Below, in pieces: positions 6,821-7,433 of a stretch of DNA of 8,059 bases; the first letter of the stretch is position 1, and each line of letters begins with the position of its first letter. Both the position numbers and the translations under genes were made by a program. Under the pieces are notes generated by a model that was given only the letters and a program-made list of their open reading frames with translations, ran no database searches and was not told the origin of the DNA. Origin of the DNA: a virus (Duplodnaviria > Heunggongvirae > Uroviricota > Caudoviricetes); IMG/VR virus record IMGVR_UViG_2737471861_000013, positions 1 to 8,059 of that record; one strand, given 5' to 3'.

Positions 6821-7027
6821 ATGCACAAAACAGAACCCAAAATCGTCGCGCCTGGCTACACAGATGAGGAAATTTATGAGTGGATGACAAAGAAGCTGGC
6901 AGCTATAAACCAGCTTCGTGAAGTGCTGTCTTATCGACAGGAAACAATAGACTCCTTAAAAAAACTGGATCAGGAAATCACGGTTTTATCACAGGATGTT
7001 ACTTTAGATATTGTGCAGACAAATTAG
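6821..7027 (+). CDS. Hypothetical 68-aa protein (first gene after the left operator; not recognisably N-like)
   Basis: ATG 6821 is preceded by GAGGAGG with 6-nt spacing; the track ORF starts at an upstream TTG 6806. Predicted helical protein without an arginine-rich motif. Its 3' end overlaps the convergent 144-aa gene by about 29 nt. Confidence 0.5.
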   Translation: MHKTEPKIVAPGYTDEEIYEWMTKKLAAINQLREVLSYRQETIDSLKKLDQEITVLSQDVTLDIVQTN

Positions 7028-7433
7028 GATCCCATTCATTTTCGTCAAAATCATCAAAGTGATGAATTTGTGATCTCCAGTCTCGATAATCTAAAAATTT
7101 CTGGGCGGTTACGCTTATTTTATCAAGCGTGAGTTCATCCTGAATTGAAAGAAGAAGTTCATCAAATTTCATCTCATTAATCTGCTTTGGCATCCAGTGA
7201 TGCTTCATCAGAATAAGGTGAACCAGAGCCTTTTTCCCATTCAACTGATTATAGGGAGTGCCGAATTTCTTCCGGTGCTCATGTAAGACAAGGTCCAGAA
7301 GAGTAAGTAATGTTGCCCTTGATTCAACTTTACTTATTTCGACTGATGACACTACCCCACTGATTTCAATGCCCCGATACTTTCCAACATTTTCACAGTG
7401 GGATTTGTACAACGTGTAGATATTACCGGACAT
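6999..7433 (-). CDS. Hypothetical 144-aa protein (AT-rich accessory gene, convergent with the 68-aa gene)
   Basis: Clean ORF with an AAGGA ribosome-binding site 6-7 nt upstream of ATG 7433. No motif I can assign. Direct repeats lie immediately upstream. Confidence 0.55.
   Translation of the reverse strand: MSGNIYTLYKSHCENVGKYRGIEISGVVSSVEISKVESRATLLTLLDLVLHEHRKKFGTPYNQLNGKKALVHLILMKHHWMPKQINEMKFDELLLSIQDELTLDKISVTAQKFLDYRDWRSQIHHFDDFDENEWDPNLSAQYLK

Follow-up and report, generated by a model that had tools for sequence, protein, structure and literature searches.

A convergent, 3'-overlapping gene pair in the N/sieB slot of a lambdoid prophage, with a sieB-type upstream region and a possible role in exclusion and self-immunity

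Phage P22 is spared from its own SieB by an antisense RNA together with Esc, a second protein (PMC12197685); SieB/Esc/sas is also treated as a self-immunity precedent in PMC7067206. Comparable arrangements are BstA, the immunity element of which is a DNA site (PMC8585504), and TERi from Listeria phages (bioRxiv 10.1101/2025.02.27.640495). N and sieB of lambda abut convergently (35037/35036), and gene 24 and sieB of P22, like N and sieB of VT1-Sakai, are arranged likewise.

Here a different pair of genes from the same position is described. The window, the whole stretch of DNA that was analysed, comprises 8,059 nucleotides of a tailed-phage genome (IMG/VR record IMGVR_UViG_2737471861_000013). 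Its relevant features are as follows.

6611-6656, plus strand: oL/pL region, a 46-nt inverted copy of oR (4385-4430), 80% complementary to it, driving the 68-aa gene
6635-6653: operator palindrome TTGCTACTTTAAGTAGCAA, within the oL/pL region
6743-6762, minus strand: strong intrinsic-terminator-like hairpin with T-run, 237 nt past the stop of the 144-aa gene
6808-6814, plus strand: Shine-Dalgarno sequence GAGGAGG of the 68-aa gene, strong, 6 nt before the ATG, from direct reading of the sequence
6821-7027, plus strand: gene of the 68-aa small partner (listed open reading frame 6806-7027, ATG at 6821)
6892-6917, minus strand: terminator-like hairpin, 82 nt past the stop of the 144-aa gene, inside the 68-aa gene, kept in the E. 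albertii allele
6999-7027: 29-nt overlap of the 3' ends of both coding sequences, from the reading frame coordinates
6999-7433, minus strand: 144-aa gene of the ECs1072 family, listed as an open reading frame with an ATG start, antisense to the pL operon
7434-7500, minus strand: leader and putative promoter region of the ECs1072 gene, colinear with the sieB upstream region
7470-7465, minus strand: -10-like TAATCT, from alignment to sieB upstream regions
7503-7532: core element, non-coding and conserved, in which the helices GCCUG/CAGGC and CCAC/GUGG interleave

The initial annotation had described two AT-rich genes that face each other and overlap by about 29 nt, and both points hold: positions 6999-7027 are shared by the two reading frames, and the GC fraction is 0.396 in 6821-7433 against 0.53 in the flanks. 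The ATG of the 144-aa gene is preceded by AAGGA. Comparison with a divergent, E. albertii-type allele gives a pN/pS of 0.16 for the 68-aa frame, or 0.11 outside the overlap, against 1.2-6.7 in the other two frames of this gene; for the ECs1072 frame the value is 0.31. Both frames are under purifying selection, and both open reading frames are real genes. RefSeq carries annotations for the two proteins (WP_000549623.1 and WP_000016389.1), the exact sequences of which are each found on at least 1000 contigs, and a 760-nt unit is covered to 80% or more in 410 of 5426 complete E. coli genomes (about 8%). The 68-aa frame is intact in 78 of the 80 IMG/VR loci that encode an identical 144-aa protein. 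A frameshifted, non-conserved C-terminus of the 68-aa protein in the E. albertii locus L005 was considered and rejected, the cause being one extra A in a run of seven; the intact E. albertii-type allele is present on 55 E. coli contigs (P0038) and in locus L099. One metagenome locus (L006) was left out on account of several frameshifts.

NCBIfam places the 144-aa protein in NF033230, "ECs1072 family phage-associated protein", with 157.8 bits (E 1.7e-46) against a curated cut-off of 70 bits, residues 4-144 aligning with profile positions 2-142 of 142. It is also a full-length match to PHROG 5286 (E 1.5e-90, residues 1-144 of 144). The NF033230 family is confined to Enterobacterales, and a profile search yielded 76 clusters at 50% identity, with lengths all of about 145-155 aa. 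The AF2 model is all-helical (pLDDT 78.5). Pfam gave no matches for this protein or for 47 family members, PF14163 (SieB) included; a sequence-profile search of the PDB returned 0 matches, and a fold search with the model found no match and no recognisable catalytic or sensor fold. PADLOC-DB v2 has no match for the proteins of the window or for the ECs1072 homologues of Serratia, Pantoea and Yersinia. A weak Foldseek lead to HEPN-type toxins was rejected, with E above 2 and a TM-score of about 0.25, as was the HEPN Rx4-6H motif, the conserved R54 and H72 being 18 residues apart. The highest Kyte-Doolittle mean over 19 residues is 0.84, compared with 1.73 for lambda SieB, and the protein has no membrane segment. 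ECs1072 was detectably expressed in cultures of O157 Sakai by microarray (PMC2241611), and a literature search with the family name, the WP accessions and the PHROG identifiers returned this single table entry.

The 68-aa gene is the first open reading frame downstream of oL/pL. Its product is a full-length match to PHROG 1744 (E 6e-35, residues 1-68 of 68) and is hydrophilic and acidic, without a membrane segment. A conserved N-terminal motif, EPxhxxxxDhxxxxLhxWh, precedes one long helix, which spans residues 15-67 in the AF2 model (pLDDT 87). This predicted form, a single amphipathic-type helix with an N-terminal peptide, would suit a binding or inhibitor protein rather than an enzyme. It had been noted that the protein sits where N would be and lacks an arginine-rich motif, and this is what was found: it has two arginines and a net charge of -4, it matches none of the N families in Pfam or NCBIfam, and it is not N-like. 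In homology, profile and structure searches, neither protein resembled a housekeeping function of phages. Purine runs resembling Shine-Dalgarno sequences precede the partner genes of other genera too.

The pairing of the two genes is conserved well beyond Escherichia. Of 14 divergent lineages, 12 have a homologue of the partner that is convergent with the ECs1072 gene and overlaps its 3' end; they include E. coli/Shigella, the E. albertii-type allele, the IMG/VR loci L100/101 and L102, Serratia, Pectobacterium, two lineages of Yersinia, Proteus, Morganella and Pantoea/Erwiniaceae. The two lineages in which ECs1072 has no detectable partner are L004 and L103. An overlap of 29 nt recurs in L099, a divergent allele, and in lineage L100 (about 36% identical); in other genera its length is 62 to 227 nt. 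The 68-aa protein matches the 73-aa product of Proteus with an E of 2e-10 and that of Pantoea with 9e-5; a partner HMM built without Escherichia recovers the reading frame in the window (E 2e-4), and loci outside the training set of the partner model score between 1e-9 and 6e-24. Judged by these comparisons, the homology of the partners is independent of model building. The family occurs in prophages of Shigella, Salmonella, Yersinia, Serratia, Proteus and Pantoea; a profile scan of genome contigs with the broad family gave 3 loci only, and three scans of viral sequences with distant ECs1072 members found nothing.

Adjacency and convergence are thus retained at 20-35% protein identity, in three types of operon and in at least seven genera. 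The two proteins co-diverge weakly (Spearman 0.25, p 0.14). The partner HMM is silent in the corresponding loci of lambda, P22, SfV, PhiR29_2, VT1-Sakai, Hafnia, Providencia and phiES15, so that it is ECs1072, rather than the slot, to which the partner belongs. The convergent overlap recurs in different genera and in phage operons of three kinds, and for this reason the pair is a functional unit rather than a chance juxtaposition. The database descriptions of PHROG 1744 and of NF033230/PHROG 5286 carry no function and do not link the two families, and no account of the pairing, of the orientation described below or of the sieB-type leader was found in the literature. The pairing appears to be previously undescribed.

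A strict rule of orientation accompanies the pairing: without exception, ECs1072 runs antisense to the lytic operon around it, whereas the partner points the same way as that operon. The rule applies to lambdoid pL operons (the window and loci L005, L010-L013, L100, L102, L104 and L106), to P2-like early operons, between Cox and GPA (L014, L015, L105 and L107), and to one late operon (L009), at a site between the holin and a Q-like DUF1133 gene. The pL -10 sequence of the window, CATAAT, aligns with the pL region of SfIV, and four to five promoter/immunity types stand ahead of the same leader in the IMG/VR loci. Within this leader lies a perfect rrn-type boxA, GCTCTTTAACAA, at 6764-6775. It is followed by no hairpin, the sole hairpin nearby being upstream and folding better on the opposite strand, and the window has no N homologue. 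The notion that the pL leader, or the STnc100-like region, encodes an antiterminator RNA of the HK022 put type was tried and set aside; BLAST gave no similarity to HK022 pL-pR, and the fold of the leader is unexceptional (z -1.6). The possibility, raised at the outset, that the pair is an inserted moron fits the finding that other genes replace the cassette between the same flanks in SfV, SfII, mEp460, ST64B and PhiR29. PhiR29_2 has a different reverse-oriented gene in the slot.

The DNA ahead of the ECs1072 gene is of sieB type. About 100 nt are colinear with the sieB upstream regions of lambda, P22 and VT1-Sakai, with 51 invariant columns in the alignment. Inside this colinear stretch lie the promoter and RNA start of sieB as annotated in the P22 record, and alignment to that annotation places the equivalent of the RNA start at about 7459. 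Promoter activity for ECs1072 in this phage would follow by homology; no strong sigma-70 site was detected on that strand upstream of the gene by a consensus scan. Some lineages have short leaders, with about 40 nt between the core element and the ATG (L102, L010, L013, L104 and L106), and the assignment of a P22-type promoter may not transfer to these.

The core element itself is common to the sieB upstream regions of lambda, P22, VT1-Sakai and a Hafnia phage, and it is present in every examined ECs1072 locus that retains upstream DNA, with the exception of L004 (L103 begins at a contig end). Pairing holds in 96.8% of cells across 14 distinct sequences, and two pairs are changed on both sides. 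Most of the unpaired cells turn into G.U on the lytic strand. The element in the window lacks the T-run typical of an intrinsic terminator. As to the end of the ECs1072 transcript, the hairpin at 6743-6762 belongs to a leader conserved among phages with different cassettes; if this terminator is used, the ECs1072 mRNA would be antisense to the entire 68-aa gene. No equivalents of the two terminator-like hairpins were found past ECs1072 in other genera, and they are a property of the Escherichia alleles.

The best explanation of these data, which we advance tentatively as possible but somewhat short of probable, is that the pair is a moron of the sieB slot: a gene that the lysogen expresses, with exclusion or abortive infection as its probable purpose, and that is neutralised by an early-lytic small protein together with antisense transcription. 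We infer the timing of expression, the physical interaction and the exclusion function of the pair as follows. The pair would constitute a self-contained prophage accessory module in the N and sieB slot of lambda. ECs1072, presumed soluble and all-helical, would have its transcription start in the sieB-type upstream region and run counter to the lytic operon, so that the lysogen would make the protein as long as pL is repressed. Its most likely role there would be to counter incoming phages by superinfection exclusion or abortive infection. Upon induction or infection, pL would fire, and its first product, the single-helix 68-aa protein, would bind and neutralise ECs1072; at the same time, the pL transcript would run antisense through the whole of the ECs1072 gene and shut down its synthesis. 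With ECs1072 neutralised and no longer made, it is proposed that the phage's own lytic cycle escapes.

Several observations sit uneasily with this model. PADLOC gives no match, and ECs1072 has neither a SieB-like membrane segment nor a recognisable fold. If the phage needs the partner for lytic growth of its own, the partnerless lineages L004 and L103 are hard to accommodate. The outcome of the sigma-70 promoter scan, the short leaders of some lineages and the weak co-divergence of the proteins also count against it.

Other explanations can be weighed against the same data. The roles may be reversed, with the 68-aa protein as a lytic effector, for instance in host takeover or growth inhibition, and ECs1072, made in the lysogen, as an antidote against leaky pL. 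The conserved pairing and the orientation rule would serve this idea equally well; the small gene is first in its operon and has a very strong Shine-Dalgarno sequence, and ECs1072 without a partner would be harmless. It is nevertheless unlikely, in that the 68-aa protein is unlike most small phage toxins in its hydrophilic, acidic character and its lack of a membrane segment, one early gene does not ordinarily call for a 144-aa protein devoted to guarding the lysogen, and the sieB-type upstream region ties ECs1072 to a slot for exclusion genes. Alternatively, the 68-aa protein might be a functional analogue of N, a read-through or insulation factor that carries transcription past the terminators of the cassette and the 7503-7532 element, ECs1072 having an independent function. 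The small gene lies exactly at the N/gene 24 position, the window has no N homologue, and the leader contains a perfect boxA. On the lytic strand, the core element follows the antisense gene and the unpaired cells tend to G.U. Partner, ECs1072 and element are also found together in P2-like and late operons. Against this, the protein is acidic, with two arginines and no RNA-binding motif, lambda and P22 carry the same element yet use unrelated N proteins, SfV and PhiR29_2 have the element with other cassettes and no partner, and the element in the window is devoid of a terminator-type T-run; we regard such a role as quite improbable.

It is also conceivable that two unrelated accessory genes were co-inherited in one small recombination cassette, their 3' overlap being incidental. 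The variable length of the overlap (29 to 227 nt), the weak co-divergence and the occurrence of ECs1072 alone in two lineages are what would be expected, but convergent adjacency at such low identity, in three operon types and at least seven genera, is not, and the partner was never seen in this slot without ECs1072; coincidence of this kind has little likelihood. A classical addiction-type toxin-antitoxin system, of type I or type II, is very improbable. Two small genes with an antisense overlap at a mobile-element site do recall such systems, and yet the genes are on opposite strands under apparently opposite regulation: they are convergent and not co-transcribed as a type II system would be, and the partner, being under pL, is presumably off in the lysogen. 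Type I systems set a non-coding antisense RNA against a small hydrophobic toxin, whereas here both strands encode hydrophilic proteins under selection, and no toxin-antitoxin family was matched in Pfam, NCBIfam or PADLOC.

A more far-reaching proposal, which seems to us rather doubtful, is that the pair represents a widespread and hitherto unrecognised system of defence with self-immunity, ECs1072 having a predicted fold unmatched in the fold libraries covered here, and that the sieB-type region is a portable cassette with the core element acting as an RNA switch for many sieB-slot exclusion genes in lambdoid and P2-like phages. Were the exclusion reading correct, a new family with its cognate antagonist would join the short list formed by SieB/Esc, BstA/aba and TerI/anti-TerI. 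The sieB upstream region of lambda and P22 would then be a reusable regulatory cassette placed ahead of unrelated accessory genes, and a sequence handle with which to find lysogen-expressed genes in lambdoid prophages. Even leaving the defence reading aside, the pair stands as a co-evolving unit with a strict orientation relative to lytic transcription.

As far as sequence can tell, the window has the attributes of a sieB-slot cassette, namely colinear upstream DNA, the core element, and an anti-pL gene convergent with the first gene of pL. The same slot holds N/sieB in lambda and VT1-Sakai and 24/sieB-esc-sas in P22, the first pL gene being convergent with a reverse gene in each, and the sieB genes of all three phages have the same approximately 100 nt of non-coding DNA, core element included, upstream. 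The initial annotation had stated that neither gene matches a lambda early-left function; this stands for the proteins, whereas the architecture and regulatory DNA do match, both in the convergent N/sieB slot and in the colinear sieB upstream region. A SieB gene adjoins ECs1072 in Yersinia locus L011. ECs1072 differs from SieB in having no PF14163 match and no membrane segment, and the 68-aa protein differs from N in having no arginine-rich motif and in travelling with its partner into operons other than pL. It differs from Esc in that it is not a truncated form of its neighbour.

The scheme proposed here would nevertheless follow the logic of P22 SieB/Esc/sas, and also that of BstA/aba (PMC8585504) and TerI/anti-TerI1,2 (bioRxiv 10.1101/2025.02.27.640495), where a defence of the lysogen is neutralised when its own prophage turns lytic. 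PADLOC indicates no sequence relationship of BstA or TerI to this pair, and the likeness is one of proposed logic only. A further parallel is found in lambda oop/cII, another case of convergent transcripts that overlap at their 3' ends in a lambdoid regulatory region (PMC7067206). Whereas oop is a non-coding RNA of 77 nt, both strands of the locus described here encode proteins under selection.

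The convergent, AT-rich pair of genes described in the initial annotation, with a 3' overlap of about 29 nt, is correctly placed, and the GC content is 0.396 for the pair versus 0.53 in the flanks. The two ORFs are:

6821-7027, plus strand: 68-aa ORF (the small partner), with a GAGGAGG Shine-Dalgarno site 6 nt upstream
6999-7433, minus strand: 144-aa ORF (the ECs1072 gene), sharing 29 nt with the small partner

Both are real genes. The 68-aa protein matches PHROG 1744 over its full length (E 6e-35) and the 144-aa protein matches PHROG 5286 (full length, E 1.5e-90); they are annotated in RefSeq as WP_000549623.1 and WP_000016389.1, and the exact sequence of each is found on at least 1000 contigs. 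When the window is compared with the divergent allele of E. albertii (locus L005; its intact form is P0038/L099), pN/pS is 0.16 in the 68-aa frame (0.11 outside the overlap), 1.2-6.7 in two alternative frames of the same region and 0.31 in the ECs1072 frame. A frameshift of the small ORF in L005 proved to be apparent only, reflecting one extra A in an A7 run. The small ORF is intact at 68 codons in 78 of the 80 IMG/VR loci carrying an identical 144-aa protein, where it is preceded by at least four different pL/immunity types, and 410 of 5426 complete E. coli genomes cover at least 80% of the two-gene unit.

Loci were gathered for divergent ECs1072 homologues, 20-72% identical to the window protein. 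In 12 lineages a small opposite-strand ORF runs towards the ECs1072 gene and overlaps its 3' end; the overlap was measured in nine of them, at 29, 29, 29, 62, 74, 194, 194, 227 and 62 nt. The paired lineages, with locus handles, are:

E. coli/Shigella; E. albertii-type allele; IMG/VR L100/101; IMG/VR L102
Serratia L009; Pectobacterium L010; Yersinia L011/12; Yersinia L106
Proteus L013; Morganella L104; Pantoea/Erwiniaceae L014/15, L105, L107

A word-indexed search with the 68-aa protein returns close homologues only. Three approaches show that the homology of the small partners across lineages is not circular: the window protein as query (Proteus 73-aa gene, E 2e-10; Pantoea ORF, E 9e-5; database of 2980 ORFs), an Escherichia-free HMM that recovers the window ORF (E 2e-4), and loci outside model building, which score 1e-9, 9e-8, 6e-24, 1e-19, 1e-16 and 3e-12, every match lying at the expected convergent position. 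The partner HMM has no match in the lambda, P22, SfV, PhiR29_2, VT1-Sakai, Hafnia, Providencia and phiES15 loci; the partner is therefore tied to ECs1072 rather than to the slot, the position after pL that holds N and sieB in lambda. A detectable partner is absent beside ECs1072 in two lineages: L004 (4001-4456), whose homologue is 56% identical to the window protein, and L103 (1-441), whose homologue belongs to a distant subfamily and converges on a 320-aa GGDEF-like gene. Proteus L013 has two tandem small-partner paralogues (3849-4070 and 3233-3628) adjoining one ECs1072 gene, of which the upstream 73-aa copy is more closely related to the E. coli 68-aa protein (E 2e-10).

At every locus the small partner points the same way as the surrounding lytic operon, and the ECs1072 gene lies antisense to that operon. 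The rule covers lambdoid early-left operons (the window included), where the pair is set between cI/pL on one side and the yfdP-yfdQ-yfdR or RdgC genes on the other; P2-like early operons, where it is set between cox and replication gene A; and the start of the Serratia late operon, where a Q-like DUF1133 gene stands on one side and the holin/lysozyme genes on the other.

The 144-aa protein belongs to NCBIfam NF033230, 'ECs1072 family phage-associated protein' (157.8 bits, cut-off 70), an entry of the hypothetical equivalog type. Clustered at 50% identity, the family members from an exhaustive profile search fall into 76 groups; all are single-domain proteins with a length of about 145-155 aa, and every named one comes from Enterobacterales; conserved positions include L50, R54, L64, G66, A69, H72 and W134. 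No family was matched in a Pfam search of 47 members, and neither a PDB sequence search nor the PADLOC models gave a match for ECs1072. The AlphaFold model is all-helical (pLDDT 78.5, pTM 0.78), and the protein lacks a membrane segment. SieB was considered as an identity and ruled out, as the protein has neither a PF14163 match nor a hydrophobic segment. A microarray signal for ECs1072 itself has been recorded in O157 Sakai cultures (PMC2241611). The small partner is predicted to form a 14-residue extended N-terminus followed by a single long helix (pLDDT 87), and small ORFs across lineages have in common a motif at the N-terminus, (E/G)P-x-h-x-x-x-x-D/Y-h-x-x-x-x-L/I-h-x-W-h, with a helical region after it.

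The window contains the immunity region of an SfV/SfIV/CPS-53-like lambdoid prophage, with a CII-like gene and a replication gene, each on the minus strand, further left:

4095-4358, minus strand: cro-like gene
4408-5169, plus strand: cI-type repressor (HTH and Peptidase_S24)
5340-6416, plus strand: ParA-like ATPase

The 358-aa ParA/MinD-like ATPase is encoded directly downstream of cI, the position of rexAB in lambda, by an AT-rich gene (GC about 0.35-0.40); PADLOC gives only weak PDC-M28B matches, via the P-loop, and it may be a further accessory gene expressed in the lysogen. Within the 313-aa replication-protein gene, at 2741-2929, short repeats in tandem (CAAAATCTGAC-like units) look like origin iterons; they produce a spurious mir-5880 Rfam match.

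The operators between cI and cro (4385-4430) recur in inverted form as a 46-nt copy at 6611-6656, which places pL just before about 6670, firing in the plus direction. The first ORF beyond it is that of the 68-aa protein, which is acidic (net charge -4) and has 2 Arg, in agreement with the earlier remark that the protein at the N position lacks an arginine-rich motif. Roughly the first 60 nt transcribed from pL (6671-6735) are 81-100% identical in many lambdoid phages with different repressors, spanning Escherichia, Shigella, Salmonella, Klebsiella, Citrobacter, Yersinia, Pantoea and Pectobacterium; this leader has an unremarkable fold (z -1.6) and does not resemble the HK022 put region. At 6764-6775, directly after a hairpin (6743-6762) that reads like a strong intrinsic terminator on the opposite strand, is a perfect rrn-type boxA, GCTCTTTAACAA. 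This pair is separately conserved in some Klebsiella phages and suggests host-Nus-dependent antitermination in a phage without an N homologue.

The flanks of the cassette are conserved in SfV, SfII, mEp460, ST64B and PhiR29, where other genes replace it, in line with the suggestion that it is an inserted moron. About 100 nt upstream of ECs1072 (7434-7545, minus strand) are conserved at the nucleotide level in all genera, despite the proteins being merely 20-35% identical. A colinear alignment with P22, lambda, VT1-Sakai and Hafnia has 51 invariant columns and 74% mean identity. The sieB promoter (29690-29720) and the start of its RNA (29727), as annotated in the P22 record, fall within this stretch; by alignment, they correspond in the window to a -10-like TAATCT (7470-7465) and to a start near 7459. 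The lambda genes sieB (34482..35036) and N (complement 35037..35438) are convergent and abutting, as are P22 gene 24/sieB and VT1-Sakai N/sieB. From the shared upstream region and convergent arrangement, ECs1072 is therefore placed in the sieB position and the 68-aa gene in the N position. In Yersinia L011 a SieB-family gene (3827-4321; PF14163, E 8e-20), likewise oriented against the early-left operon, immediately adjoins the ECs1072 module; thus the slot can hold two reverse-oriented accessory genes. In SfV (L002, U82619), from about 4540 downwards on the locus minus strand, the core element described below precedes AAAAGGAAAATCAAATG and an ORF starting MTFDEKEL, on the opposite strand to annotated orf33; this reverse ORF, which is unannotated, may be the true gene of the slot. 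Between the cassette and a yfdP-like gene lies an STnc100 (RF02076)-like RNA (7544-7766, plus strand; 42.2 bits, E 1e-6, gathering score 47) ending in a terminator-like hairpin; SfIV gp34 and gp35 and one RefSeq pseudogene, called over this GC-rich non-coding stretch, are probably spurious.

The core element was located as follows:

7503-7532: two interleaved complementary pairs, GCCUG/CAGGC and CCAC/GUGG
lambda 34397-34427: core upstream of sieB, found by pattern search
P22 NC_002371, about 29653-29683: core upstream of the annotated sieB RNA start

Genes with this element upstream are sieB (in lambda, P22, VT1-Sakai and one Hafnia phage), ECs1072 and further genes in reverse orientation. A BLAST search recovered the element from 109 phage records; Stx phages are among them, as is a Hafnia phage with a downstream gene annotated as SieB. 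Among 14 distinct sequences, from which the structure was itself derived, 96.8% of cells pair, and slid controls all drop to 18-45%. Two pairs have changes on both sides (U-A/G-C/C-G and C-G/U-A), drawn from two or three lineages. These data lend moderate support to the predicted paired structure. Of the five non-Watson-Crick cells, four (C.A or A.C when read on the ECs1072 strand) are G.U when read on the lytic strand, whose loop lengths also appear to suit an H-type pseudoknot better. Given these features and its position in P22, the element may be active either at the DNA level or in the RNA of the lytic strand, there forming a terminator-like structure or the 3' structure of an antisense RNA. 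Behind it lies a second hairpin, with the arms UCUCG..CGAGA in lambda and P22, UCCUUUU..AAAAGGA in SfV, and UCUUGG..CCAAGA in short-leader lineages, where its 3' arm overlaps the Shine-Dalgarno sequence.

We tentatively favour a sieB-slot accessory module in which ECs1072 is a lysogen-made exclusion or abortive-infection factor that the phage escapes on induction. In the lysogen, with pL repressed, ECs1072 would be made from its own sieB-type promoter and act on incoming phages. On induction, pL would yield the 68-aa helix protein first and a transcript antisense to the whole ECs1072 gene, so that the phage could escape its own factor. The expression timing, protein-protein interaction and exclusion phenotype are what we infer for such a module. 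Two terminator-like hairpins on the ECs1072 strand (6917-6892 and 6762-6743) imply that the ECs1072 mRNA in turn covers most or all of the 68-aa gene in antisense.

The roles could be reversed, the small protein being the effector and ECs1072 a lysogen-phase antidote; we consider this unlikely. That the small protein is a read-through factor for the cassette seems improbable, and we give equally little credence to two unrelated genes having been co-inherited; a chance neighbour pair is very unlikely, because the geometry is kept as the genes move between different operons. A classical toxin-antitoxin pair we regard as highly improbable. The module is common and clearly testable, and its exclusion function is a proposal.

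PHROG 1744 and PHROG 5286/NF033230 are existing catalogue entries of 'unknown function'. Four points appear to be new: the conserved pairing, the rule of orientation, the connection with the sieB regulatory cassette, and a fold prediction for ECs1072 without a match. A literature search on them found no paper. The kind of module is itself known: a moron expressed in the lysogen and paired with an antisense or early-lytic counterpart. Genes with their own promoters, antisense to lytic genes, are typical of prophage accessory loci (PMC7067206), and the same logic is seen in P22 SieB/Esc/sas (PMC12197685; PMC7067206), BstA/aba (PMC8585504) and TerI/anti-TerI (bioRxiv 10.1101/2025.02.27.640495). 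With lambda N/sieB, the window shares the slot and the sieB-type leader, whereas its 144-aa protein is not SieB and its 68-aa protein is not N-like.
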